A stretch of DNA of 64,000 bases from a virus. Of the stretch, positions 1 to 37,031 are shown one piece after another. Within the stretch, counting starts at the first letter, position 1. The number at the start of each line of letters is the position of its first letter. The stretch covers positions 1 through 64,000 of the IMG/VR virus record IMGVR_UViG_3300045051_000978. The stretch is one strand, 5' to 3'. Below the pieces are notes generated by a model. It saw only the letters and a list, made by a program, of their open reading frames with translations. It ran no database searches and was not told the origin of the DNA. A program made the translations under genes and the position numbers.

Positions 1-189
1 GGCGGAGAGCGGCACGACCATTTGGTGTTCGACCATCCAGTCCCAGTATTCCCAGGTCATGGTGCCGTGCGTCGTCTCCAGGGTCTTCGAGGTGGCGTCC
101 ACCGAGTGGACCGTCAGCTCATGCTCCTCGTACATGTAGCTCGGAGCCAGGAAGCGATAGCACACCTTGAGACCGGGTCGTGGCGTCAC
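1..189 (-). CDS. hypothetical protein, 3' end outside window
   Basis: Open frame from GTG at 189 (MTPRPGLKVCYRFLAPSYMYEEHELTV...) running off the window edge. Confidence 0.5.
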   Translation of the reverse strand, partial: MTPRPGLKVCYRFLAPSYMYEEHELTVHSVDATSKTLETTHGTMTWEYWDWMVEHQMVVPLSA

Positions 190-207
190 GATTCTACTTA
201 CCGAAAC

Positions 208-283
208 TGGTGTCCCCGGCAGGATTTCAACCTGCGACCATCCGCTTAGGACGCGGCTGCTCTTGGCGCTGAGCTACGAGGAC
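208..283 (-). tRNA. tRNA-Arg(CCT)
   Basis: Cloverleaf, anticodon loop GTCCTAA, T-loop TTGAAAT, encoded CCA. Confidence 0.9.
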
Positions 284-513
284 AAAACTTCAGGCGGCAC
301 ATCGGCACGCTTCTTCACCGGCCACGCCCTCATGCGCTCGGCATGTTCCCTGGCCAGGTGAATCGCCGTGTCGTCGCTGTTGAGGCTGATCCAGTATTCG
401 AGCACCGCCACCGCGGTGGCATCTTGCGCCCGAAGAAGGAACACTGGTTCGTCTGCCGGAATCTTGCCTTCGGGGTCCTGGATACGCTGGTAGTCTTTTC
501 GTGCGTGAAGCAT
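274..513 (-). CDS. small phage hypothetical protein (DEPVFLLRAQD motif)
   Basis: 79 aa ORF with protein-like composition, GTTCT motif upstream; stop codon falls inside the 5' end of tRNA-Arg(CCT). Confidence 0.75.
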   Translation of the reverse strand: MLHARKDYQRIQDPEGKIPADEPVFLLRAQDATAVAVLEYWISLNSDDTAIHLAREHAERMRAWPVKKRADVPPEVLSS

Positions 514-533
514 GGCACGTGCAAGAACGAAAC

Positions 534-610
534 TGGTGCTCCCGGCAGGAGTTGCACCTGCGACCTGCTGATTCGGAATCAGGCGCTCTGGCTAACTGAG
601 CTACGGGAGC
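534..610 (-). tRNA. tRNA-Arg(CCG)
   Basis: Anticodon loop TTCCGAA, T-loop TGCAACT, CCA. Confidence 0.9.
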
Positions 611-612
611 AG

Positions 613-688
613 TCCGTAGGCAAGGAATGAGCGACGGTGTTTGACTGTCCATTACGGGCAAGATAACCATCACACTGCGGCCTACAGA
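613..688 (-). ncRNA. minimal Y RNA-like RNA
   Basis: Terminal stem TCTGTAGGC/GCCTACGGA, CGCA after the 5' strand, GGTTATC motif and CTT bulge before the 3' strand; same scaffold as 2596-2726 and 3282-3415. Confidence 0.65.
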
Positions 689-691
689 AAG

Positions 692-769
692 TGGCAGCCC
701 CGGACGGTGTCGATCCGTCTTCTTCAGCTTGAGAAGCTGACATCCTAGCCAAGCGTAGACGACGGGGCC
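692..769 (-). tRNA. tRNA-Glu(CTC)
   Basis: TCAGC-TTCTCAA-GCTGA anticodon arm, T-loop ATCGACA, CCA. Confidence 0.9.
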
Positions 770-770
770 A

Positions 771-1520
771 CTAAACCACAGGAGTGCCGTAGTCGATCTC
801 GTACCCGTGGATGATTCCGTTTACATTCGCAGAAGCTGTCTGCGAGAAGTAGACGGTTCCATTGGTCACGACATGCGGCAGTCCGAAATTGATCGGGAAG
901 AACTTTGAGTCGCTTGCAGAAATCTTGATGGAGCCCTTGAACAGGTTGACGTTCACACCGACGGGTCCGTCAGAAATGGTGACGGTGCTCGTCGCGTCAG
1001 CCGTAAAGTGGATGTCCGTCACTACCGGCACCTTGCCTGGCACGGCTGCCCAGATTGGCGAATTGTATACGGAACCACTGAACTCGATGTTCCTGGTAAC
1101 GACAGGAAATCCAATCGAGTGTGGCGCGTAGCCGTGCTCGATGCCTTCAAGCGTGCTGACCTGGGACGACAGTCTGCCCGTTACGCTGCCTGTGCCTGTC
1201 CCTGCGATGATCGTCACGAACCGCAGCTTCGAGAGCGTGGCAACGGAGCCGACGAAATCTTCAGCTACATGCACGTGCTGCGCGTAGCCGTCACCGCCGA
1301 TTTCGCGCAGCGTGATTGGCGTGAACACGCCATCAAAGCAACCCTGAAACTGAATGCACGCCCCGGCAGGCGGCACGATGTGAAAGCCGATGCTGTTGTA
1401 CCCCTGGCACGAAAGCTCGTAGTACGAGCCAAGAGCACCGTTCAGAACCCCCGTAAACGAAGCACCATCCGACGTTTTGCCGTCTGCGGCCTGCGGGTTG
1501 GGTACGAGGGTCCGGATCAT
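771..1520 (-). CDS. hypothetical protein, beta-rich, possibly virion-associated
   Basis: 249 aa ORF filling the gap between tRNAs; TACTTA motif 4 nt upstream of ATG. Confidence 0.75.
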   Translation of the reverse strand: MIRTLVPNPQAADGKTSDGASFTGVLNGALGSYYELSCQGYNSIGFHIVPPAGACIQFQGCFDGVFTPITLREIGGDGYAQHVHVAEDFVGSVATLSKLRFVTIIAGTGTGSVTGRLSSQVSTLEGIEHGYAPHSIGFPVVTRNIEFSGSVYNSPIWAAVPGKVPVVTDIHFTADATSTVTISDGPVGVNVNLFKGSIKISASDSKFFPINFGLPHVVTNGTVYFSQTASANVNGIIHGYEIDYGTPVV

Positions 1521-1544
1521 GCCCTAAGTAGCAACTGAAAACTG

Positions 1545-1607
1545 CCGAGCAAGTTGAGCGCTGACGGTGGTAACCTTGGAAAGATAACCGTCAACAATTC
1601 GGCTCGG
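1545..1607 (-). ncRNA. minimal Y RNA-like RNA
   Basis: CCGAGC-CGAA-TTGTTGACGG-TTATC...ACCGTCAGCG-CTCAACTT-GCTCGG; shares CGAA, GGTTATC and CTCAACTTG with 2596-2726. Confidence 0.7.
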
Positions 1608-1613
1608 ACAAAG

Positions 1614-1691
1614 TGGCAGTGCCGACGGGTCTTGCACCCGTTAGGACCGGCTTGAAAAACCGGGTACGCGAGCTGCTTTGTATTCGGCACC
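1614..1691 (-). tRNA. tRNA-Glu(TTC)
   Basis: Anticodon loop TTTTCAA, T-loop TGCAAGA, CCA. Confidence 0.85.
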
Positions 1692-1699
1692 GTTGAAAA

Positions 1700-1776
1700 T
1701 GGTGCCAACGGCTGGGATCGCACCAGCGACACCTCGATTTTCAGTCGAGTGCTCTACTGATCTGAGCTACGTTGGC
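1700..1776 (-). tRNA. tRNA-Phe(GAA)
   Basis: CTCGA-CTGAAAA-TCGAG, T-loop TGCGATC, CCA. Confidence 0.92.
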
Positions 1777-1780
1777 AGAG

Positions 1781-1856
1781 TGGTGGTCACGGCAGGATTC
1801 GCACCTGCGACCTATCGGTTATCAACCGATTGCTCTGACGGCTGAGCTACGTGACC
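1781..1856 (-). tRNA. tRNA-Ile(GAT)
   Basis: ATCGG-TTGATAA-CCGAT, T-loop TGCGAAT, CCA. Confidence 0.92.
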
Positions 1857-1866
1857 GAAAATCGGT

Positions 1867-1895
1867 AAACAAAAAGCGCTGCCGTGGCAGCGCTT
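1867..1895 (-). terminator. intrinsic terminator-like hairpin
   Basis: AAGCGCTGCC-AC-GGCAGCGCTT followed by TTTGTTT, just downstream of CDS 1902-2018. Confidence 0.6.
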
Positions 1896-1901
1896 CGCAA
1901 T

Positions 1902-2018
1902 TCACTTTTTCAGTTCAGGTTTGCCGGGCGTAATCTCGACGCTGACGGCTTCGTCTTTCGGCCGCGGCCGAAGCAGGCGTAGCAACCACGCCAGGAACCT
2001 GGACAACCAACCGAACAT
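1902..2018 (-). CDS. 38-aa peptide with amphipathic N-terminus (MFGWLSRFLAWLLRLLRPRPK...)
   Basis: ATG overlaps the stop of 2018-2341 (TGATG coupling); below the ORF track cutoff. Confidence 0.55.
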   Translation of the reverse strand: MFGWLSRFLAWLLRLLRPRPKDEAVSVEITPGKPELKK

Positions 2019-2341
2019 CACTTCAGTTCGGGCACCCCGGCAACCACGAGGGCGGAGACCGCCTCGGCCGGGCGCACCTCGATGTCGAGGGTGCCGGTGA
2101 TCGGACGCACGCCTTCACCCAGGTCGGCATCCGCCTCGCACACCACCTGCGCGACACCAAGCGCCCCGGAGGCAAGCGCGGTGGCGGACAGCCCATCTTC
2201 GCTCGGCACGACCGTGATGACGGTCTCGTCCGAGCTGCTCCAGGCAGGCGTGCCATCAACCCGTGCCGGATTACCGGCGGCGGTCTTGAAGGCAACGTTG
2301 AGCTGGACCTTCTGCTCATCGGTAAGGATCAGTGCTGGCAT
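2018..2341 (-). CDS. Ig-like domain protein
   Basis: PAWSSSDETVITV pattern typical of Big_2-like Ig domains; start moved to ATG 2341 downstream of TAGTTA. Confidence 0.7.
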   Translation of the reverse strand: MPALILTDEQKVQLNVAFKTAAGNPARVDGTPAWSSSDETVITVVPSEDGLSATALASGALGVAQVVCEADADLGEGVRPITGTLDIEVRPAEAVSALVVAGVPELK

Positions 2342-2365
2342 AGCGTCGTAACTACGCCCAAGTGA

Positions 2366-2457
2366 TGGCGGCTCCGGCAGGATTTCAACCTGCATCCGTT
2401 TTTAGGCGGCACTCCGATTTCGAGTCGGGGGCACTGGGCGATTGATGCGACGGAGCC
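2366..2457 (-). tRNA. tRNA-Ser(CGA)
   Basis: Anticodon loop CTCGAAA, long variable arm, G73, T-loop TTGAAAT, CCA. Confidence 0.88.
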
Positions 2458-2463
2458 AAAGTG

Positions 2464-2588
2464 TCGAGCAGGGATTTCACCGGATGATCAATCCGTTTTC
2501 GGCTTTCGCCTACTTATTCCGCGCTATGCCGGCTGGCGCGAGTATCCAGGGGAATCGAACCCCCTCGCGGCGCGTCTATCCTGCCCGA
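2464..2588 (-). ncRNA. unassigned structured RNA containing a canonical T-arm
   Basis: Ends pair (TCGGGCAGG/CCTGCTCGA); internal GGGGG-TTCGATT-CCCCT and GGC-GAAA-GCC hairpins. Confidence 0.5.
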
Positions 2589-2595
2589 AAGGAAT

Positions 2596-2726
2596 GACGA
2601 TCAAGTTGAGCTGAGGATGTTTTAGGTGCTCTACCACTGAGCTACCCTGGCGTGTTGTGCCAGGGGTTGGACTCGAACCAACGACCACCCGCTATGTAGG
2701 CGATAACCCTCTGCATTCGGACCGTC
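2596..2726 (-). ncRNA. YrlA-type bacterial Y RNA (permuted tRNA-like domain)
   Basis: GACGGTC-CGAA...GGGTTATC, then T-arm (GTTGG-TTCGAGT-CCAAC), loop-closed acceptor stem (CCCTGGC-ACAACAC-GCCAGGG), D-arm (TAGCTCAGTGGTAGAGC), ending CTT-GATCGTC. Confidence 0.85.
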
Positions 2727-2730
2727 AAAA

Positions 2731-2837
2731 TGGCTGCCGGAGCTTCGTCTCAGAAGCACCACCCTTGCGGATGGATCGACGTGAGGACCAGCTGGGCAGT
2801 AACCGGTGTGCCTTCGCCATTTCCACCGTATCCGGCT
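2731..2837 (-). ncRNA. unassigned CCA-ended tRNA-like RNA
   Basis: GCCGGA/TCCGGC terminal stem followed by AGCCA; T-arm-like GCTTC-TGAGAC-GAAGC; no recognisable anticodon arm. Confidence 0.5.
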
Positions 2838-2846
2838 GTTCGAGAA

Positions 2847-2936
2847 TGGCGGATGGTGCAGGCTTCGCTCCTGCGCGGGTTTTACCCCGACTTCGCGCTT
2901 CCAACGCGATACCTTACTGGACTCGGTCAACCATCC
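2847..2936 (-). tRNA. tRNA-Ser(GGA)
   Basis: TCGCG-TTGGAAG-CGCGA, long variable arm, T-loop AGCGAAG, CCA. Confidence 0.88.
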
Positions 2937-2938
2937 AT

Positions 2939-3034
2939 TCCACCGTGATTTCCATGCTTACGTCGTCGCAGTGACTCAGAGCCTCCTTGCGGTACAGCTC
3001 TCGCACCCTAAGGGCGCTTTTGGCACACGGTGGA
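2939..3034 (-). ncRNA. unassigned structured RNA
   Basis: 9-bp terminal stem TCCACCGTG/CACGGTGGA fills the gap between two tRNAs; internal hairpins including a GCAA tetraloop. Confidence 0.45.
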
Positions 3035-3045
3035 TTTCTGCGAAA

Positions 3046-3135
3046 TGGCGGCTGGTGCAGGATTCCCACCTGCGTTCGTGTAAACGAAACCTCCGGGTTC
3101 AAGCCGGGTGCCTTAGGGTGCTCGGCCAACCAGCC
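3046..3135 (-). tRNA. tRNA-Ser(TGA)
   Basis: Anticodon loop CTTGAAC, long variable arm, T-loop TGGGAAT, CCA. Confidence 0.88.
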
Positions 3136-3139
3136 AAGA

Positions 3140-3274
3140 TCAGGCCAGGAACAGCTCTCTTTCTGAGGACCGCAGTCCCCAGCGATGTCCGCACCGGCAG
3201 TCCCTGTGCTGCGTTATGCCGGTAACCACGAACCTCCGGTGTTCCAGTAGGCGACGAGCCGCCTTTTGGCCTGA
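3140..3274 (-). ncRNA. unassigned structured RNA
   Basis: Terminal stem TCAGGCCA/TGGCCTGA with several internal stems (ACCGGCA/TGCCGGT, GGGGAC/GTCCTC). Confidence 0.45.
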
Positions 3275-3281
3275 AAAATAT

Positions 3282-3415
3282 GACGGTCAAGGGAGTAGAC
3301 AAGGATGTTTTAGCGCTCTACCACTGAGCTACGCTGGCGTATGGAGCCAACGGTGGGACTCGAACCCACGACCGCCTCATTAACATTGAGATAACCCTCA
3401 TCAGTTCGGACCGTC
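3282..3415 (-). ncRNA. YrlA-type bacterial Y RNA (permuted tRNA-like domain)
   Basis: GACGGTC-CGAA-CTGATGAGGG-TTATCTCAAT, T-arm GTGGG-TTCGAGT-CCCAC, loop-closed acceptor stem CGTTGGC-TCCATAC-GCCAGCG, D-arm, ending CCCTT-GACCGTC. Confidence 0.87.
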
Positions 3416-3421
3416 AAAAAT

Positions 3422-3514
3422 TGGCGGCGGATCGAAGCAACAGGTTTGGACCCTGATGTTTTGTATACGGGGCGGGTTCGTACAGCTGCCATAGCCCCTT
3501 CACTCCGACCCGCC
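3422..3514 (-). ncRNA. unassigned CCA-ended RNA with long terminal stem
   Basis: 13-bp stem GGCGGGTCGGAGT/GCTTCGATCCGCC followed by GCCA. Confidence 0.55.
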
Positions 3515-3529
3515 ATGCGGTTTTCAAAA

Positions 3530-3606
3530 TGGCGTCCTCGGCAGGAGTTGCACCTGCGGCCTCCACCTTCGCACGGTGGCGCTCTGGCTGACTGAGCTAC
3601 GAGGAC
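3530..3606 (-). tRNA. tRNA-Arg(GCG)
   Basis: CCACC-GTGCGAA-GGTGG, T-loop TGCAACT, CCA. Confidence 0.9.
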
Positions 3607-3610
3607 AAAT

Positions 3611-3686
3611 TGGTGCTCCCGGCAGGACTTCAACCTGCAACCGACGGGTTAGAACTCCGCCGCTCTGGCAATTGAGCTACGGGAGC
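3611..3686 (-). tRNA. tRNA-Arg(TCT)
   Basis: Anticodon loop GTTCTAA, T-loop TTGAAGT, CCA. Confidence 0.87.
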
Positions 3687-3697
3687 GTAGCTAAAGT

Positions 3698-4507
3698 ATG
3701 GACAGCTGGCTCCAAGCCTTCGGTGCGACAGGTCTGCTATTTCACGCGGCAGCGCTCTACGTCTGGATAACGCTACGCAAAAACGTAGACAAAAGCGTGT
3801 GGTGGTCTGTCACCATCGGCTACATCGCCCTTTTATCGCATCGCGCAAACGAGCTTGCCGGGTGGTCAAACGTTTACGCCCAGACAAGCGCAGTGGTGAT
3901 CGCGTACATCGCGCTCTACGCTGTCCTGCGCGCAAAACGGCACATCGCCCTGACCAAAGCATTCAGTCAGCTGATTGCGAAAATGGCGGAAGTTGAGCAG
4001 CCCAAGCGTCAAATGGCGCAGGCCCTTGCAGAACGCCTTATCGAACTGAAAGCCCAGGTAGACGTGCTGCAAACAGCACCGCCGGCAGAACCCCCCTTTC
4101 GCGATAGGCTAGCCACTCGACTGGCCAACCACTTCATCGAAGCCAGGGAACGGCTGCATACCATGGGCGCTCAGATGCAGCTCTACAAGGATGTTGCGGA
4201 CGCGTCGCCCGTGCCGATGGTGATTACCGATTTCAACGGCAAGCTCACGTACGCCAACCCAGCCTACCTGCGCTTCGTCGGCGCTTGCCTCAAAGACGTA
4301 CTGGGCGAAGGCTGGAGAAGCCGAGTTGATCCGGCTGTCATCGAAGAGGTGGCATCCGCCTGGCAGGCCGCAATACAACAAGAAAGCACGCACGCTCAAG
4401 GCGCAGTATCGTTCCTGGTAGACGGCGTGCCCATCAAATGCGTTTACAGCATGACACGCATCACTGAGGGCTACTGCGGATTCATACTGCCGACCAACGG
4501 TCGGTGA
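3698..4507 (+). CDS. membrane-anchored PAS domain protein
   Basis: Three hydrophobic N-terminal segments, coiled-coil linker, PAS pattern DASPVPMVITDFNGKLTYANPAY...LGEGW. Confidence 0.8.
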   Translation: MDSWLQAFGATGLLFHAAALYVWITLRKNVDKSVWWSVTIGYIALLSHRANELAGWSNVYAQTSAVVIAYIALYAVLRAKRHIALTKAFSQLIAKMAEVEQPKRQMAQALAERLIELKAQVDVLQTAPPAEPPFRDRLATRLANHFIEARERLHTMGAQMQLYKDVADASPVPMVITDFNGKLTYANPAYLRFVGACLKDVLGEGWRSRVDPAVIEEVASAWQAAIQQESTHAQGAVSFLVDGVPIKCVYSMTRITEGYCGFILPTNGR

Positions 4508-4510
4508 AAA

Positions 4511-4585
4511 TGGCTGCCAAGGTAGGACTCGCACCTACAACCACCTGATTAACAGTCAGGCGCACCACTATTGTGCTACTTGGCA
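4511..4585 (-). tRNA. tRNA-Asn(GTT)
   Basis: CCTGA-CTGTTAA-TCAGG, T-loop TGCGAGT, CCA. Confidence 0.92.
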
Positions 4586-4592
4586 ACGAAAT

Positions 4593-4679
4593 CGGTGCAC
4601 GCTACGGGAATCGAACCCGCCGCCGCTGACAAACACGGATCAACCCGTGTCCAACGTTCGCGCCAGCTTGCAGAATGCA
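4593..4679 (-). ncRNA. tRNA-like RNA with canonical T-arm, no anticodon arm, no CCA
   Basis: Imperfect acceptor-like stem, GCGGG-TTCGATT-CCCGT T-arm, long internal hairpin; ends CCG. Confidence 0.45.
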
Positions 4680-4685
4680 GAAGAT

Positions 4686-4761
4686 TGGTCGAGCTGGTGG
4701 GATTCGCACCCACGGCCTCCTCGCCCCGAACGAGGCGCGCTGACTGCTGCGCTACAGCTCG
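4686..4761 (-). tRNA. tRNA-Pro(CGG)
   Basis: CCTCG-TTCGGGG-CGAGG, C1-G72, T-loop TGCGAAT, CCA. Confidence 0.92.
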
Positions 4762-4765
4762 AAAA

Positions 4766-4840
4766 TGGTCGGGACGGTGAGCTTTGCACTCACGACCTCC
4801 TGCTCCCAAGGCAGGCGCGCTACTCCTGCGCTACGTCCCG
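4766..4840 (-). tRNA. tRNA-Pro(TGG)
   Basis: CCTGC-CTTGGGA-GCAGG, T-loop TGCAAAG, CCA. Confidence 0.92.
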
Positions 4841-5335
4841 TCTGAAATCTGAAGACACGTTCGTGCCGTCGCTGTTGAACGTCACCTCCGCCGGCATGCG
4901 TTTGACGACGATGTTTTTGAGCAGGTGCTCATGCACAGGGCACGAAACAGGCTCCGTGCAGATCGGAACAAACCAACCGACAAAACCGTCTACAGAAACG
5001 TAACCAACGTCCATGAAGCCCTGAAGGATTCCGCCGGTTGGCTGCACGTGTTCCACCGCCAGGTGCTTCACGCCGATCCGATGGCGCACCACGTGGTCCC
5101 ATACCGATTCAACCTTCAGGCGCGAGCTTGGCGTCAGTGTGCTCAGCCATCCGCGGCCGACGACCTGGTCAATCGGCTGCATGATCAGCTTCTGGTAGTT
5201 CAAGTTGATGTGAACCCAGTCGCCCGACTTGTCGGCCACGAACATCGGCACAGGACAGGACTCGACGATGGCCGTGCGAATCGTTTCGCGACTCGTAATC
5301 AGCGTGGTTGCAAGAGCCTCGGCGAGCGTACTCAT
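4820..5335 (-). CDS. stand-alone PAS domain protein
   Basis: ESCPVPMFVADKSGDWVHINLNY...VGRGW PAS pattern; TAGTTA upstream; stop lies inside tRNA-Pro(TGG). Confidence 0.8.
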   Translation of the reverse strand: MSTLAEALATTLITSRETIRTAIVESCPVPMFVADKSGDWVHINLNYQKLIMQPIDQVVGRGWLSTLTPSSRLKVESVWDHVVRHRIGVKHLAVEHVQPTGGILQGFMDVGYVSVDGFVGWFVPICTEPVSCPVHEHLLKNIVVKRMPAEVTFNSDGTNVSSDFRRDVAQE

Positions 5336-5354
5336 CCCAGATAACTAGCTGAAA

Positions 5355-5431
5355 TGGTCGGGATGGCGGGCTTCGCACCCGCGACCTCCAGTCCCCCAGA
5401 CTGGCGCGCTACCTTTCTACGCTACATCCCG
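5355..5431 (-). tRNA. tRNA-Pro(GGG)
   Basis: CCAGT-CTGGGGG-ACTGG, T-loop TGCGAAG, CCA. Confidence 0.92.
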
Positions 5432-5453
5432 TCAAAAAGCTGTTCTCTCCCGC

Positions 5454-5717
5454 ATGGAACGCAACTGGAGAGAGGAAATCGCTGAGCGCAACGCGGAAGC
5501 ACTGTTCATCGGCGATCCCGAAGACCGTAAGTTCGACGAAGCCATTGTCGGCATCGGCTCACGCTGTGGCCAGCCTGACCTTCTTGTCTACAGCTACGAG
5601 AAGATCATCGACGTACTCGTCAAGGACGGCATGGAGCGTGAGGAGGCCACGGAGTACGCCGACTTCAACATCGTCGGTGCCTGGGTGGGCGAGCACACGC
5701 CGATCATCCTCACCTGA
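5454..5717 (+). CDS. phage hypothetical protein (FDEAIVG...EY.DFNI.GAWVGE.TP type)
   Basis: 87 aa acidic ORF of a type recalled from phage genomes; GTTCT upstream. Confidence 0.8.
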   Translation: MERNWREEIAERNAEALFIGDPEDRKFDEAIVGIGSRCGQPDLLVYSYEKIIDVLVKDGMEREEATEYADFNIVGAWVGEHTPIILT

Positions 5718-5723
5718 AAAGGA

Positions 5724-5821
5724 TTGCCGATCAGGAACGAGCACCCCGTGTGGCATTGGCCCCTTTACTTCCGTCGGGGTGACGTGGGGGCCTTCAGGCA
5801 CACCGCTCGTTCTGGCGGCAA
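5724..5821 (-). ncRNA. unassigned rod-like hairpin RNA
   Basis: Nested stems TTGCCG/CGGCAA, AACGAGC/GCTCGTT, GTGTG/CACAC, GGCCCC/GGGGCC with internal loops. Confidence 0.5.
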
Positions 5822-5823
5822 AA

Positions 5824-5942
5824 TGGCGGGGAAGGCTGGACTTCAACCAGCTTCCTGACACCGTCCGGTGCCCGACTCGTCTGTGAAGGTGTCCGGCGGA
5901 CATGTGCTCGCCGTTTGCTCTTCACGCTTCGTCTTCATCCCC
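5824..5942 (-). ncRNA. CCA-ended RNA with tRNA-like acceptor and T arms, 119 nt
   Basis: GGGGATG/CTTCCCC followed by GCCA, T-arm GCTGG-TTGAAGT-CCAGC, no standard D or anticodon arm. Confidence 0.6.
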
Positions 5943-5946
5943 AGAG

Positions 5947-6024
5947 TGGCGGTGCGTACGGGCTTCGCTCCCGTGGCCTTCCGGTAGACAGCCGGGCGCT
6001 CTGACTGGACTGAGCTAACGCACC
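5947..6024 (-). tRNA. tRNA-Asp(GTC)
   Basis: Anticodon loop CTGTCTA, G73, T-loop AGCGAAG, CCA. Confidence 0.9.
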
Positions 6025-6058
6025 AAAGTAACAGGCGACCGTGTTCAGCGGTCGCCAG

Positions 6059-6163
6059 TGAAGTCCCCAGGATTCCATCACGTTCCTGCCTTAGATGATG
6101 GCGTCTGAACAACGCCAGTGGGATTCCGAGTACCCACATTCCGATCCGTTCACCTGGGCTTCA
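6059..6163 (-). ncRNA. unassigned structured RNA
   Basis: Terminal pairing TGAAG-CCCAGG/CCTGGG-GA-CTTCA with several internal hairpins. Confidence 0.4.
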
Positions 6164-6166
6164 GAA

Positions 6167-6244
6167 TGGCGGACTGCGCCTGACCTCGCGTCTCCCATGC
6201 CCGGAGGCAAGGATCGCGGAGATTGCGCGAAACAGGCGCAGTCC
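6167..6244 (-). ncRNA. CCA-ended minihelix-like RNA
   Basis: Perfect 12-bp stem GGACTGCGCCTG/CAGGCGCAGTCC followed by GCCA. Confidence 0.6.
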
Positions 6245-6253
6245 AGAAAGCGT

Positions 6254-6724
6254 TTACCACGTGGCGTCGGTATCGCGCACGCGTCGAAGAAACAGAAACT
6301 CAATTGGCTCACCGCGCCGAATCGCGGCAACAGAGCGATGGTAACCGTCGCCGTGGTTCATCTCGTCCGAAGCCCATTCCCTGAACGAAGCTCCACTTCC
6401 AACGATGTACGGCCACCTCTCCTGACCTGCATCCCACAGGCTCGCAATGTGCCGAATACGCTTTTCGTCAGAAGCGTGCAGCGGCTTCTCAGAGCCAAGC
6501 TTCCAGCCGATACCGTACCACGCCTTGCGCATCTTCTCGGCTGGATACGCTTGCAATCTGTAAACGTATTTTCGGACGTGCTCATCGTACTCGTCCTCCT
6601 CGACGCCACCATCCACGATCATGTACTGCCAGAGTGCGTCTTTGGCACGTTTTGGCAGGCTGTCGTACGAAATCCAGCGCCCTTCGCAAAGAAGGGCCTC
6701 AACGATGCGCTGAGCTGACAGCAT
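6254..6724 (-). CDS. hypothetical protein with N-terminal xxLLxE peptide, possibly ParB-like (GDGYHR)
   Basis: 156 aa ORF starting MLSAQRIVEALLCE; DGYHR resembles the ParB/Srx motif. Confidence 0.7.
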   Translation of the reverse strand: MLSAQRIVEALLCEGRWISYDSLPKRAKDALWQYMIVDGGVEEDEYDEHVRKYVYRLQAYPAEKMRKAWYGIGWKLGSEKPLHASDEKRIRHIASLWDAGQERWPYIVGSGASFREWASDEMNHGDGYHRSVAAIRRGEPIEFLFLRRVRDTDATW

Positions 6725-6739
6725 GCTTTACGTACAGAA

Positions 6740-6815
6740 TGGCTGCCGCGGTGGGCCACGATCCCACAACCTTCGGAGTCAGAGTCCGACGCTCTGCCAA
6801 TTGAGCTACGCGGCG
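6740..6815 (-). tRNA. tRNA-Gln(CTG)
   Basis: TCGGA-CTCTGAC-TCCGA, mismatched 1:72 pair, T-loop ATCGTGG, CCA. Confidence 0.9.
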
Positions 6816-6829
6816 TCTACGAAATACTC

Positions 6830-6938
6830 CAGCGGGAGTTTGTCCTGCGGTCGTCTCGGATGTGCATGTACCGGTCATCCTCGTCGCCGTGGCTCAGGAC
6901 TGTTGCATCCACGCGTTGCAATGCGCGCAGCCCCGCTG
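6830..6938 (-). ncRNA. unassigned structured RNA
   Basis: CAGCGGGG/TCCCGCTG terminal stem, inner stems GTCCTG/CAGGAC and GGATG/CATCC. Confidence 0.45.
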
Positions 6939-6942
6939 AAAT

Positions 6943-7078
6943 TGGTGGACCTGCGGAGGAGTCGAACCTCCAGGCAGCGTGACCGGTCTGGCACTCGCGC
7001 CGCCTCCATCCCTGGGATTCACCCGCGGCCCGGATTGATTACCGGCAAAGTTCCCACACCGCAGGATCGGGCAAGCCC
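6943..7078 (-). ncRNA. CCA-ended RNA with alanine identity elements, 136 nt
   Basis: GGGCTTGC/GCAGGTCC stem (G3:U70), A73, CCA, canonical T-arm GGAGG-TTCGACT-CCTCC; no standard anticodon arm. Confidence 0.65.
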
Positions 7079-7082
7079 AAAA

Positions 7083-7173
7083 TGGTGGTAGCGGCTGGAG
7101 TTGCACCAGCGGTGTTTACCTCAGGGGTGACGGATTTACAGTCCGTGTCGTTCGCTGCTACGGGTACGCTACC
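7083..7173 (-). tRNA. tRNA-Tyr(GTA)
   Basis: ACGGA-CTGTAAA-TCCGT, long variable arm, T-loop TGCAACT, CCA. Confidence 0.9.
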
Positions 7174-7751
7174 AAGAAATCGTTTGCGAGCTTACGCACG
7201 CGCTCCAGGCACTTCTCGTAGTGCGCATTGGCCCAGACGTGCATGAACGTCGGCTTTTGACCACCGAGCAGCGACCGCGGATTGGCGATCACGTGCTCTG
7301 GAAAAAGGGCTCGTCTCTTCACGACAGCCGGAAGAGCCAAAAGGCTGGCCATGAAATCTTGCTCCTGCAACCGGTGATCCAGCCAGTTCGGCATGCTGTC
7401 GTGGACCGTAGACAGAAGCCAGTTTGACCATCTGCCGGCCTTGTACAGGACTGCGCCGCTACAGATGCCGTTGTAGTCCTGCGACGCCGTGAACTCAACC
7501 GACTCGTCGTATACAATCGGATCGCACTTCACAGGTACGATGTCGATGTCCATCCACATGACGTAGTCGAACGCCTGGAGCTTCGAGCGCACCAGCGCGT
7601 AGCGGCTTTTGTATGGATGAACGCCCTGGGGTGAAGACTGTAGTTCGTACTCCCACCCATTCCGAGCGCACCAGCGCTGGACAGCAGGTGAGGCGGCTTC
7701 CGCGTACGGTCTGTACCTGGCGTCAACCGCCTGGAAAATAAGCCGACCCAT
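7158..7751 (-). CDS. GT-A fold glycosyltransferase (GT34-like)
   Basis: FDYVMWMDID DxD motif, DYNGICSGAVL and EQD motifs. Confidence 0.75.
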   Translation of the reverse strand: MGRLIFQAVDARYRPYAEAASPAVQRWCARNGWEYELQSSPQGVHPYKSRYALVRSKLQAFDYVMWMDIDIVPVKCDPIVYDESVEFTASQDYNGICSGAVLYKAGRWSNWLLSTVHDSMPNWLDHRLQEQDFMASLLALPAVVKRRALFPEHVIANPRSLLGGQKPTFMHVWANAHYEKCLERVRKLANDFLVAYP

Positions 7752-8203
7752 CAGTACCTCGAAAACCCTCGGCGGCTGAAAGCGCGGTCGTAGCTTTTGA
7801 CATCTTCGAGGGACCGACGCTGAAGCGATCCGATCCAGTAGCGAATTTCGTCCGCTCCACGCTCAAGCGCGCCTGCGTGCACGAAAATGGCCTTGCGCCG
7901 TCGCCACAGCTTCCACCCGTCGCCTTCCTGGCGTGCCAGGCGTGCCTTCACCGTCACGTAACCTTTGTCTACGGAATTGATCAGTGTCAGCCGAACGTGC
8001 GTGTAAACGCGACCGTTCGCGTTGAGTGCGGTGATGGGCTCGTGAAGTGGGATGTTCAGCACCGCGACGTTGTCGCTGAGCGCCGTCATCCCAAGCTCTG
8101 TTGCGATCTCTCTGATCGGCGAAGGCTGGTCCAGAAAATCGCGAATGGCGTCCAGGTCGGAGTCATCGTCGTCCACGCCGTTCTCGCCGTTCTCGATCAG
8201 CAT
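7751..8203 (-). CDS. hypothetical protein
   Basis: Start moved to ATG 8203 (MLIENG) because the longer ORF runs through tRNA-Trp; stop overlaps the next ATG. Confidence 0.65.
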   Translation of the reverse strand: MLIENGENGVDDDDSDLDAIRDFLDQPSPIREIATELGMTALSDNVAVLNIPLHEPITALNANGRVYTHVRLTLINSVDKGYVTVKARLARQEGDGWKLWRRRKAIFVHAGALERGADEIRYWIGSLQRRSLEDVKSYDRAFSRRGFSRY

Positions 8204-8215
8204 CCTGGCGGAAAG

Positions 8216-8288
8216 TGGCACGGAGAGAGGGTGCTGCCCCCTCCAGGACTGGTTTTGGAGACCGGTCTGCACAGCTGGTGCCCTCCGT
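8216..8288 (-). tRNA. tRNA-Trp(CCA)
   Basis: Anticodon loop CTCCAAA, G73, aberrant T-loop GGCAGCA, CCA. Confidence 0.8.
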
Positions 8289-8289
8289 A

Positions 8290-8529
8290 TCAAAGCTCTG
8301 GAAACATGCCTCGTTGCTTGCCGCGGCTGTAGTAGCGCGGGTCCTCGGCGAGGTGGTCGAGTGCGATCTCCTCGGCGACCTTCGGGTCGTTCGTGTGCTC
8401 CATCTCGACCTCGATCCCCATCTTCAGCTCCTCGGGATCGACGCCGCTGGTGTCGTGCAGCTCGCCTTGACGACTTCCACCTGGGATGTGGTCTTCAAGG
8501 AGTCTGTTTACGATCAAGCGCGCATTCAC
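8290..8529 (-). CDS. DUF5661-like phage protein with N-terminal LLE peptide
   Basis: ELKMGIEVEMEHT...IALDHLAEDPRYY motif; TAGTTA 4 nt upstream of GTG. Confidence 0.8.
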   Translation of the reverse strand: MNARLIVNRLLEDHIPGGSRQGELHDTSGVDPEELKMGIEVEMEHTNDPKVAEEIALDHLAEDPRYYSRGKQRGMFPEL

Positions 8530-8542
8530 GCCCTAACTAGAG

Positions 8543-8618
8543 TGGTGGAGCGGGGGAGAGTTGCACTCCCGACCTTCGCAATGCCATTGCGACGTTCTGC
8601 TATCTGAACTACCGCCCC
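8543..8618 (-). tRNA. tRNA-Ala(GGC)
   Basis: G3:U70, TCGCA-ATGGCAT-TGCGA, T-loop TGCAACT, CCA. Confidence 0.92.
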
Positions 8619-8623
8619 GAAAG

Positions 8624-8880
8624 TGGGGGCTGTCGGGGTTTTCACCCTTTGTCGGCAACAGCCGGGTGCCGGCGCAGTTGATTTCACGCTTTGTCGTCCC
8701 GTGCTTCAGCGCCAGGGATCGAACCTGGCCTACCGAGTAACCCCGGCGTTCACCGTAAACTACGCGAAGCACGTCTACTGCGAAAGCAAGCGGCACCCCT
8801 TTTACGCTGACGGACAGATTCGTGATTTCGAGGTCGCACGACCGACCCGCTGCCGTCCCACGGACAAGCCAAGTGCCGCT
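8624..8880 (-). ncRNA. unassigned multi-domain RNA region with an embedded tRNA-like domain and a CCA end
   Basis: Closed domain 8789-8880 (AGCGGCACTT/GGGTGCCGCT); cloverleaf 8700-8773 with 4-nt anticodon-position loop and TTCGATC T-loop; terminal GGCTGTTG/CGACAGCC followed by CCCA. Confidence 0.5.
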
Positions 8881-8883
8881 AAA

Positions 8884-8959
8884 TGGTGGAAGTGACAGGA
8901 CTCGCACCTGCAACCTGATGCTTGCAAAGCACCTGCTCTACTAATTGAGCTACACCCCC
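8884..8959 (-). tRNA. tRNA-Ala(TGC)
   Basis: G3:U70, anticodon loop TTTGCAA, T-loop TGCGAGT, CCA. Confidence 0.92.
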
Positions 8960-8970
8960 GTGAAAACTGT

Positions 8971-9204
8971 TTACCAAACGACCGGATTGGAAGTTCGGTT
9001 ACCGATCTGCTCGCCGTTCGCAAGGTACGACTGCTCGCCAGAACTGTAAACGAATTTCAACTCATGACCGGTATCGTTCCGGAGGCTGGCTCCTGGAGCC
9101 ACCGTGAGAGGTTCGCCGATGGTCAATGTCTGGCCCTCCAGCTTGAGGCTCGGGTACCGGCCCAGGCGCGAAACGCGCACACTTCCTTTCAACGTCATGC
9201 TCAT
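8971..9204 (-). CDS. hypothetical protein
   Basis: 77 aa from ATG 9204 (MSMTLKGSVRV), GTTCT upstream; the longer ORF overlaps tRNA-Gly. Confidence 0.6.
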   Translation of the reverse strand: MSMTLKGSVRVSRLGRYPSLKLEGQTLTIGEPLTVAPGASLRNDTGHELKFVYSSGEQSYLANGEQIGNRTSNPVVW

Positions 9205-9218
9205 GCTTGGTTCAGAAC

Positions 9219-9294
9219 TGGAGCACCCGACCGGCTTTGCTCCGGCGACATCCACGTTGGCAACGTGGTGCTCTACTGGCTGAGCTACGGGTGC
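9219..9294 (-). tRNA. tRNA-Gly(GCC)
   Basis: CCACG-TTGCCAA-CGTGG, U73, T-loop AGCAAAG, CCA. Confidence 0.92.
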
Positions 9295-9299
9295 AGAAA

Positions 9300-9405
9300 T
9301 GGGTTGCAGACGCAACGTTGAGAGGTAAGCTCCGGGGCGCTCGCTTCGGTGGAGAGTTGGCACTCGATCAACACCTGGGCAAGCGCCCCGGAACCATTCC
9401 TACAA
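9300..9405 (-). ncRNA. unassigned long hairpin RNA ending in CCA
   Basis: GTTCCGGGGCGCTTGC/GCGAGCGCCCCGGAGC stem, terminal TTGTAG/CTGCAA followed by CCCA. Confidence 0.5.
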
Positions 9406-9538
9406 AGAACAGAACACCCAGTTGCATGGCCTTTTGCCGTGCACCCGCTGGTTTACTGATCTCCAGGGCTCCGTAACCCCTTCGACCTTCTCGGCGGTCT
9501 TCGCGACCTTATCGCAGTCGCTCGCGGCCTTACGGCTT

Positions 9539-9576
9539 AAAATGAAAAACCCGCTATCCGTTTCCGGGTAGCGGGC
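9539..9576 (-). terminator. attenuator terminator upstream of the RNA array
   Basis: CCCGCTACCCG-GAAA-CGGATAGCGGG followed by TTTTTCATTTT. Confidence 0.8.
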
Positions 9577-9601
9577 TAAAAAGTCCTGATGACCCTCCAG
9601 C

Positions 9602-9730
9602 TTATCCGCTACCCTCCACTGGTTCCTCCGAACGAATTCCAAACGAGTCACACGGCAGGGAGGAACCACTAAGGGCGTAATGCCCTTTCGCGTTCAACCA
9701 CATCGTGGCGTTTGTCTGTTGGAGTCTCAT
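9602..9730 (-). CDS. putative leader peptide, 42 aa (MRLQQTNATMWLNAKGHYALSGSSLPCDSFGIRSEEPVEGSG)
   Basis: ORF between promoter and terminator; its last codons (GGGTAGCGG, 9614-9606) are complementary to the terminator 5' arm (CCGCTACCC, 9574-9566). Confidence 0.6.
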   Translation of the reverse strand: MRLQQTNATMWLNAKGHYALSGSSLPCDSFGIRSEEPVEGSG

Positions 9731-9776
9731 TTTCGGGTCAGTCGGCGCACCACCCGGCGCGCCGTCAGTGCGGATG

Positions 9777-9810
9777 AATCTATCGATCTGAGTTGTTTAC
9801 AGCAACAACT
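9777..9810 (-). promoter_or_regulatory. sigma70-like promoter with overlapping inverted repeat
   Basis: TTGCTG-17 nt-TAGATT; perfect inverted repeat AGTTGTT-N6-AACAACT at 9791-9810 covers the -35. Confidence 0.6.
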
Positions 9811-9886
9811 ATTTTCGGCTCCGTTTACAGATTTTCGTAAGACCTCTGGTAGGCAACAGGTTACAGACGAAAAATTCCTGGTGGAT

Positions 9887-10228
9887 TCACGGAACCGCTA
9901 CGCCCTCAACCGGCGGCGTGATGAACAGCGGAGGCAGTGTCGTCTTCACGTGGTTGCGCACGCCGGGCAGGATCAACCTCTTGACCTGCTGATGGATAGG
10001 GCTGGAGCCTGTGCGCCACGCACCGCGGTAGCCGATGGCGATGCCCTCGCCGCGTTGCGCCTTGGACACGCGATACTGCACCTGCGCCTCGGTGAGGCCC
10101 GTGTGCTCCGCGATGGCCTTGGTGGTCATCCCGAGCATCGCCAGGGACACCACCGCAACGTCCTGCGCGACACGACCGTCGAAGGTGATCTTGTGCCGCG
10201 TCTTGAATTTCTTGGTGTTCGTGTTCAT
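9887..10228 (-). CDS. HTH DNA-binding protein
   Basis: GMTTKAIAEHTGLTEAQVQYRV helix-turn-helix; ATG 10228 overlaps the upstream stop. Confidence 0.65.
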   Translation of the reverse strand: MNTNTKKFKTRHKITFDGRVAQDVAVVSLAMLGMTTKAIAEHTGLTEAQVQYRVSKAQRGEGIAIGYRGAWRTGSSPIHQQVKRLILPGVRNHVKTTLPPLFITPPVEGVAVP

Positions 10229-10569
10229 CGCGGGCTCATGTGCGAAGCCACCTTGAGAGCCGTGGTCAGGACGGCGAGGTTCAGACCACACCGCGGGCAG
10301 AAACACGGCGCGTCGCCGCCCTGGGCCTCGACAATCGTCGGTCGCTGCGAGTCGCGGTACGCCTTGGTGCGCCGATCCACGCGAGGCGTGTCCAGCACCG
10401 TGAGCGCGGTCGATCCATTCTGCCGCAGCGCTGCGCCGCGTGGGCCGAGAGCCGTCGGAATCAGACCGGAGTGTTTACGACCTACGTGCATGCGCAAAGC
10501 CGCCTGAGCTTGCATCGCGCTGGGCTTGGTGAACTTCCGGCCGCAGTCCTTACATTCGAGTGTTGTCAT
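10225..10569 (-). CDS. zinc-finger protein (C2H2-like plus CPRC)
   Basis: CKDCGRKF...LRMHVGRKH and FCPRCG; translationally coupled to the ligase gene. Confidence 0.7.
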   Translation of the reverse strand: MTTLECKDCGRKFTKPSAMQAQAALRMHVGRKHSGLIPTALGPRGAALRQNGSTALTVLDTPRVDRRTKAYRDSQRPTIVEAQGGDAPCFCPRCGLNLAVLTTALKVASHMSPR

Positions 10570-36957: not shown

Positions 36958-37031
36958 TGGTGCCTGCGGCAGGAATCGAACCCGCTTGTCCCGGTTTAGA
37001 GTCGGTAGGCCAGCCAATGGCCCACGCAGGC
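36958..37031 (-). tRNA. amber suppressor tRNA (anticodon CTA)
   Basis: GCCTGCG/CGCAGGC acceptor stem, anticodon loop CTCTAAA, canonical TTCGATT T-loop, CCA. Confidence 0.85.

Follow-up and report, generated by a model that had tools for sequence, protein, structure and literature searches.

What are the two small stem-loop elements that lie among tRNA genes of a large phage? They were found in IMG/VR record IMGVR_UViG_3300045051_000978, a linear record of 126,921 bp that is estimated to be 76% complete, and the window analysed here is its first 64 kb. The sequence-only reading of that window had pointed to positions 613-688 and 1545-1607, here called miniA and miniB, as Y RNA-like genes reduced to a minimum. 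Ro60/Rsr rings are described as binding the conserved bulged helix of the Y RNA termini, and the apical module of the RNA as tethering a partner (eg PNPase) or gating the ring (PMC4201824; PMC12135203). Our conclusion is that miniA and miniB are very probably genuine minimal Y RNAs and putative partners of Rsr.

One scaffold in four copies

The scaffold occurs four times in the window, at the following positions.

613..688 (RNA 688..613), minus strand: miniA, putative minimal Y RNA; terminal stem, CGCA, stem 2, GGUUAUCUU, AUUC bulge, CUU
1545..1607 (RNA 1607..1545), minus strand: miniB, putative minimal Y RNA; terminal stem, CGAA, stem 2, GGUUAUCUU, CUCAA bulge, CUU
2596..2726, minus strand: long putative Y RNA 1 with a tRNA-like module (YrlA-like); Rfam YrlA 43.9 bits (cut-off 69), same stem scaffold
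3282..3415, minus strand: long putative Y RNA 2 with a tRNA-like module (YrlA-like); Rfam YrlA 36.9 bits (cut-off 69), same stem scaffold

The RNA sense of miniA and miniB is the minus strand, as it is for the surrounding tRNA array. In each, the terminal stem is followed by CGCA (miniA) or CGAA (miniB), by a nine-position second stem (stem 2) that ends in GG and by UUAUCUU; on the 3' side come the return strand, an A/C-rich bulge of 4-5 nt, CUU, which is unpaired, and the G with which the terminal stem closes. A long paired stem made from the 5' and 3' termini is thus present in each (6-9 bp of terminal stem plus the nine-position second stem), as is a bulged helix with the conserved 3' strand CUUG. 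In miniA the terminal stem has 9 bp and stem 2 has eight pairs and one U.U mismatch, with 28 nt between the stem-2 strands; its fold has a minimum free energy (MFE) of -24.4 kcal/mol (z -2.31) and is matched by 4 of 200 shuffled sequences. The terminal stem of miniB has 6 bp, its stem 2 has 9 bp and 20 nt separate the stem-2 strands (MFE -22.2 kcal/mol, z -3.61, matched by none of 200 shuffles).

The z-scores by themselves are modest and would suit two chance hairpins, a reading to which we attach almost no weight. It is refuted by an independent covariance model (R3, described below), and the number of motif occurrences and the pairing among the four copies also speak against it. The motif GATAACC-N7-9-TKCGG has four occurrences in the window, one at each copy and none elsewhere, compared with a mean of 0.01 in shuffled sequence (0 of 100 shuffles reach four). 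When the four copies were aligned to R3, 92.2% of 64 cells were paired, against 73.7% after shuffling (reached in 0 of 500) and at most 55.1% when the partners were slid, and 9 of the 16 pairs were changed on both sides. The claims that miniA and miniB share one scaffold and that the stems differ in sequence while their pairing is kept were therefore borne out: both elements fold as drawn, the motif is confined to the four copies and R3 recognises all of them.

The copies differ at the apex, where the long ones carry a tRNA-like part of about 85 nt and miniA and miniB only 20-28 nt. It had been proposed that a short hairpin replaces the tRNA module in the two minimal copies. The short apical part is there, but the apical hairpins seen in the MFE folds are not conserved in relatives, and this part is better called a short loop of 20-28 nt than a hairpin.

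Relatives of the minimal copies and their linkage to Ro genes

Comparative data from close kin were absent, so IMG/VR was searched with patterns taken from the two minimal copies. The strict pattern gave 53 loci, two of which had the full scaffold by the stem test; the Y RNAs of a third, L049, were recognised by a covariance model, R2, built from 17 sequences. A looser pattern gave 23 loci. Nineteen of these had 4 bp or more in the terminal stem, and their stem 2 was paired, with a sequence that varied by locus; the other four appear to be chance matches. Over 78 sources (804 kb) R2 marked 49 sites at E<=1, all in true pattern loci or in L049, and it gave no site at that threshold in the remaining chance loci or in three relatives of the phage by DNA polymerase (L006-L008, 46-58% identity), where the best YrlA match was at E 0.81. 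Many loci are arrays, with 1-9 copies each (nine in L075) and apical inserts of 16-100 nt.

To remove the circularity of a search that began from the window's own sequences, model R3 was trained on 64 matches from 29 loci outside the window, on phage and bacterial contigs. In this training set 90.5% of 1009 cells were paired, compared with 62.3% after shuffling (reached in 0 of 500) and 46.9% at most with the partners slid, and compensatory changes on both sides were seen in 15 of the 16 pairs. More than half of the 64 relatives (36) fall outside the search pattern; 24 of those 36 do not exceed 80 nt in length, and UUAUC is kept in 29. At E<=10 R3 marked exactly four sites in the 64-kb window, namely miniB (1544-1608, 56.9 bits, E 4e-12), miniA (615-686, 36.7 bits, E 5.3e-7) and the two long copies (3282..3415, 36.6 bits, E 5.6e-7; 2596..2726, 23.7 bits, E 0.001), E-values that are rough on account of a short calibration. 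The result over positions 1-10000 was unchanged with the filters off. R2, even with its filters off, misses both long copies, which R3 reaches. The covariance-model search that had been suggested as a check thus finds relatives in phage and bacterial DNA, their structure conserved with compensatory changes.

These relatives bear on whether miniA and miniB are decayed, non-functional YrlA genes that have lost the tRNA-like module. Long and short forms stand in one array here, and in miniA the CGAA is substituted and one stem position is mismatched, which would agree with decay. Yet 52 of the 64 relatives are 80 nt or shorter and have the same architecture with compensatory changes, and miniB outscores every long copy in the window under R3. 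A natural variant, on a related contig of run X6, whose contig set spans the whole stretch (a comparison in which most other differences from the window are not listed), has U630>G in the RNA, which makes the sole stem-2 mismatch of miniA a U.G pair. The stretch is also contained in full in two runs, X1 and X2. Decay is on these grounds very improbable.

A mixture of lengths is also seen elsewhere. The 97-kb viral record L075 has nine matches (6567-6817 and 9482-10287), seven of them in an 800-nt tandem array that ends 147 nt before a TROVE gene, and the record mixes forms of 65-73 nt with forms of 94-129 nt. A 490-kb record (loci L068 and L078) has two minimal copies, and in each of them two adjacent U.U mismatches stand at the same point of stem 2. 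Read by eye, other members too have a mismatch at or near that position, which may point to a conserved non-Watson-Crick site.

Genes with the TROVE domain of Ro60/Rsr accompany the family. Of 20 viral records in which a copy was confirmed, 16 had one (15 of 17, plus the jumbo record G004; G005 and the present record were without), as did 10 of the 11 that are at least 90% complete, although not all of these counts are independent since some records are near-duplicates (L069/L074/L081/L083; L071/L073). By tblastn the TROVE gene lay inside 13 of 24 loci, always on the strand of the RNAs and 10-926 nt from the nearest copy. In G004 a TROVE-domain protein (Pfam 145.7 bits) is encoded ahead of the minimal RNA, which begins about 5 nt past its stop codon.

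The same association was found in bacteria. A pattern search matched 113 stretches, 80 of which were examined as loci, and R2 matched 12 of the 80 (Deinococcus, Deinococcales, five Armatimonadota, an Iamiaceae actinomycete, Saccharibacteria and others). TROVE was present in seven of the 12 model-positive loci, against none of the 68 model-negative ones. In five whole bacterial genomes (about 19 Mb) all 18 R3 matches fell in a single locus per genome. Among 151 Actinomycetota genomes TROVE was found in seven (one of them the unpublished G075) and R3 matches in two, both TROVE-positive and both with the matches adjoining the TROVE gene; one of the two is independent of the training set. None of the 144 TROVE-negative genomes had an R3 match.

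A Ro-like protein is encoded by 354 deposited phages, six of which were examined with R3: Sinorhizobium phage Phosso, Gordonia phage Forza, Mycobacterium phage Stubby, Streptomyces phages Blueeyedbeauty and SaltySpitoon, and Rhodococcus phage Trina. All six had matches on the Ro strand, 23 in total, some of them tight between tRNA genes, and none of the 23 is annotated as a noncoding RNA. Among them are L205 2503-2570 in SaltySpitoon and L202 5351-5414 and 5914-5982 in Forza. At some of these sites the deposited annotation has something else: small 'hypothetical protein' coding sequences lie over R3 sites in Stubby (215/216, L203 2561-2904) and Phosso (395, L201 1488-1698), and in Trina a pseudo 'tRNA-OTHER' does (L206 2771-2901).

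The linkage of the relatives to Rsr genes indicates that miniA and miniB are hairpin-type Y RNAs, like YrlB, Yrn2 and the Yrl RNAs of phage phiLo. The further proposal of a modular family, in which one handle carries different apical modules, fits as well, because R3 finds all four copies by their stems while their apices differ, as do the inserts of the relatives, and because the relatives adjoin TROVE genes. That the handle binds Ro is suggested by this gene linkage together with published motifs.

The tRNA array and the whereabouts of an Rsr gene

By its PHROG matches (DNA polymerase, DnaB-like helicase, NAD-dependent ligase, baseplate wedge and tail fibre) the record belongs to a large tailed phage. 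A near-identity search of window positions 1-10000 against deposited phages gave no match, and the best matches of the polymerase in named phages are 25-29% identical over less than half of the query and allow no inference of the host. The tRNA array lies on the minus strand at 208-9294, where ARAGORN finds 18 tRNAs. The elements that flank miniA and miniB are listed here.

534..610, minus strand: tRNA-Arg(CCG), found by ARAGORN and Rfam, 2 nt past miniA
692..769, minus strand: tRNA-Glu(CUC) with encoded CCA; Rfam tRNA 40.7 bits (match 695-769), ARAGORN at relaxed threshold only
1614..1691, minus strand: tRNA-like element with CCA, ending 6 nt before miniB; cloverleaf-like MFE fold, z -2.58
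1873..1896, minus strand: terminator-like hairpin, from a consensus scan only, upstream of the unit of tRNA-Ile, tRNA-Phe, the tRNA-like element and miniB

miniA begins 3 nt past the CCA of tRNA-Glu(CUC) and stops 2 nt short of tRNA-Arg(CCG), whose RNase P site would define the 3' end of miniA. The tRNA-like element before miniB was called by none of the tRNA finders tried, relaxed ARAGORN included; on a hand reading it is Glu, with anticodon UUC. The terminator-like hairpin is weak evidence, as nine such sites were found where 10.4 are expected. Between the two units lies an open reading frame (771-1520, 249 aa) for which neither a Pfam family nor a relative among viral contigs was found.

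With both elements fitted so tightly between tRNA or tRNA-like genes, they might belong to the array itself and act independently of Rsr, punctuating its processing, stabilising its transcript or terminating it, with no more than a resemblance to a Y RNA stem; a U run after the terminal stem of some relatives (L071/L073) would agree with this. A processing hairpin, however, needs no invariant CCGAA, GGUUAUC or CUUG and no bulge of 4-6 nt, and such elements would not track TROVE across phages and bacteria. We regard this explanation as very improbable. Nor is the position peculiar to this phage. In L026 a copy stands directly after tRNA-Ala and before tRNA-Glu, copies in L077 and L065 come right after tRNA-Ile and tRNA-Asn, and in Forza they lie between the transfer-messenger RNA (tmRNA) and tRNA-Arg and between tRNA-Ile and tRNA-Met. 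No report of Y RNAs inside tRNA arrays was found in literature searches on Y RNA, phage and Ro60/TROVE. In three complete records (G007, G010 and G017) 8 to about 300 kb separate the TROVE gene from the Y RNA genes, which there too stand in tRNA arrays. The arrangement in the window is on that evidence normal for the family, and the Rsr gene of this phage may lie in the missing quarter of its genome.

Several observations weigh against miniA and miniB as partners of Rsr. Proximity to a Ro60/Rsr gene is found for the relatives and not in this record: Pfam finds no Rsr/TROVE in the whole 126,921 bp, the best tblastn hit with 12 Rsr queries is at E 0.042 and a purpose-built profile reaches only E 0.12. 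(An open frame at the contig end, 1-189 on the minus strand, was considered as the start of an Rsr gene and ruled out, having no Pfam match at E<=1.) No RtcB was found in the whole record either. A consensus scan gave no promoter-like site. Both elements also depart from the published 5' motif GNCGAAN0-1G. miniB has GCCGAA, then UU, then G, ie two bases in place of none or one, and miniA has GCCGCAG, with one substitution (CGCA for CGAA); GCCGAA occurs in 16 of the 17 seed sequences, miniA being the exception. Finally, the seed set is partly circular because the search patterns derive from the two minimal copies of the window, and the alignments were fitted to the model, which favours the pairing counts.

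The lack of a TROVE gene in the record would be expected if the phage truly had no Rsr and its four Y RNAs were orphan decoys that load the Rsr of the host, redirecting or silencing host RNA surveillance and repair. A 56-kb record rated 100% complete (G014) has one minimal copy and no TROVE, which leaves room for a carrier without Rsr. However, the present record is only 76% complete, 10 of the 11 near-complete records have TROVE, and the distances of 8 to about 300 kb between TROVE and the Y RNA genes in G007, G010 and G017 make a gene in the missing part the simpler reading. Orphan decoys are, on balance, unlikely, but the least unlikely of the alternatives to genuine partners of Rsr.

miniA and miniB belong to a conserved family of hairpins of about 60-75 nt whose paired ends would form the helix bound by Ro60/Rsr, with a GCCGAA-type motif on the 5' side and the CUU bulge and G on the 3' side, followed by an upper stem of 9 bp and a loop starting UUAUCUU. 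From the fold, its conservation and covariation, and the family's linkage to Rsr genes and tRNA arrays, we infer the steps of transcription, processing, Rsr binding and gating that follow. The minus-strand tRNA array would be transcribed together with the Y RNAs as long precursors, and processing of the flanking tRNAs, by RNase P and the 3'-end machinery, would release them. The freed miniA and miniB would then bind an Rsr ring, formed either by a phage Rsr from the missing quarter of the genome or by the Rsr of the host. Without the tRNA-like module they might serve as gate or occupier RNAs, the two long copies being the form that tethers a nuclease, although this assignment of gate and tether is a guess. 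The minimal copies would offer a handle and a pyrimidine-rich loop only, and together with the long copies they would give one pool of Rsr several states.

Two open frames with a PAS domain lie within the tRNA array, at 3698-4507 on the plus strand and 4820-5335 on the minus strand. A nineteenth ARAGORN tRNA, a suppressor with anticodon CUA labelled tRNA-Pyl, is far from the main array at 36958-37031 (minus strand) and raises the question of TAG read-through. The elbows of the phage tRNAs are odd. T-loop position 55 is G in 14 of the 21 tRNA or tRNA-like genes (UGC in 11, AGC in three); the remainder have UUG (three), AUC (two) or UGG (one), the canonical UUC being found only in the CUA suppressor. 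The D-loops are mostly without GG, and CCA is encoded in all 21. The tRNA-like modules of both long Y RNAs retain canonical GGUUCGAGUCC and AGUGGUAGAGC. Each long copy is preceded by an odd tRNA-like stretch on the minus strand (2734-2846 and 3420-3529) that ends in GCCA and a U run; both were missed by the default finders, and relaxed ARAGORN gives tRNA-Arg(ccg) at 3429-3508. Just downstream of long copy 1, at 2458-2594 on the minus strand, a T-arm-like hairpin (GGGGGUUCGAUUCCCC) is enclosed in a CGCGAG/CUCGCG helix and followed by CCA, an element that resembles a tRNA minihelix.

Comparison with known Y RNAs

For YrlA-like RNAs, proximity to Ro60 has been reported in 254 bacterial species and 22 phages. 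The Rfam family YrlA (RF02553) has, like miniB, a stem with a CGAA motif, and the two long copies match it at the 43.9 and 36.9 bits given above. Its module of T-arm and D-arm is absent from miniA and miniB, which give no YrlA match at E<=10 and are not members of that family, and its consensus is without UUAUC at the corresponding place. miniB aligns with the Deinococcus Y RNA (Yrn1, RF01053) along the whole stem, including CCGAA and GGUUA; the match is weak (20.6 bits with a cut-off of 80, E 0.73 in 1.1 kb), and the 52-nt internal domain of the Rfam model is absent.

The closest counterparts are hairpins. Modularity has been described for Y RNAs, and hairpin-type members that lack a tRNA module have already been published (PMC4201824; PMC12135203). 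According to PMC4201824, hairpin Y RNAs are bound by Rsr in three bacteria, with GNCGAAN0-1G as the motif. YrlB of S. Typhimurium, which has that motif, YrlB of M. smegmatis and Yrn2 of D. radiodurans are, like miniA and miniB, second Y RNAs beside a tRNA-like one, and immunoprecipitation or crosslinking recovered all three with Rsr. Compared by their published description, these bacterial RNAs differ in being chromosomal and within 2 kb of rsr, and a T-arm, absent from miniA and miniB, is ascribed to M. smegmatis YrlB (PMC4201824). Orthologs of YrlB are described there only from other S. enterica serovars. The bacterial hairpins were found by immunoprecipitation, and the 2014 paper remarks that such RNAs had escaped bioinformatic discovery; its supplement lists phage matches and hairpin structures, and may already include some of the RNAs described here (PMC4201824). 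Among phages, Yrl1 and Yrl2 of Thermus phage phiLo are, like miniA and miniB, phage-encoded hairpins; they were identified through a CGAA motif and a stem-bulge-stem shape. They bind the phage Ro60 in electrophoretic mobility shift assays and form complexes with the PNPase of the host, and by that description their genes are just upstream of the phage Ro60 gene, whereas miniA and miniB stand in a tRNA array on a record without a Ro gene (PMC12135203). In a Listeria phage, abundant RNAs that lie upstream of a putative Rsr have been suggested as possible Y RNAs (PMC12282133).

The likeness extends beyond bacteria. Long copy 1 aligns without gaps to the 5' halves of the consensus of both the metazoan Y RNAs (RF00019) and the nematode stem-bulge RNAs (sbRNAs; RF01656), in blocks that include GGUCCGA..., GGGUUAU(C) and a 3' CUUGA. 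The scores, 22.0 and 20.9 bits, are below the cut-off of 38, and miniA and miniB give no match; the genes of these two families are eukaryotic and have other loops. UUAUC is conserved and functionally important in metazoan Y RNAs and nematode sbRNAs (PMC4726728), and the phage Y RNAs retain this sequence, tied in the metazoan literature to another function. No literature linking UUAUC to bacterial or phage Y RNAs was found, judged by title or abstract. A review states that the bacterial Y RNAs are not homologous with the vertebrate clades. The resemblance of UUAUC and the stem to the metazoan RNAs may reflect either common descent or convergence on the Ro60 surface. As a speculation that we hold to be rather unlikely, the core of CCGAA strand, CUU-bulged helix, 9-bp upper stem and UUAUC where the loop begins could be one ancient module of phages, bacteria and animals, spread by large phages as cassettes through their tRNA arrays, with UUAUC linked to Ro60; certain phages, perhaps including this one, would then carry the RNA only and take over the Rsr of the host.

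R3 recognises hairpin Y RNAs in phage and bacterial DNA and gives almost no background matches, for a family that has no Rfam model. Hairpin Y RNAs are by this measure widespread in phages, unannotated and commonly interleaved with tRNA genes, and those now marked in named phages of Mycobacterium, Streptomyces, Gordonia, Rhodococcus and Sinorhizobium are in systems where experiments are possible. The kind of RNA is one already known, of which miniA, miniB and many of their relatives, unannotated in the six named phages examined, are further members.

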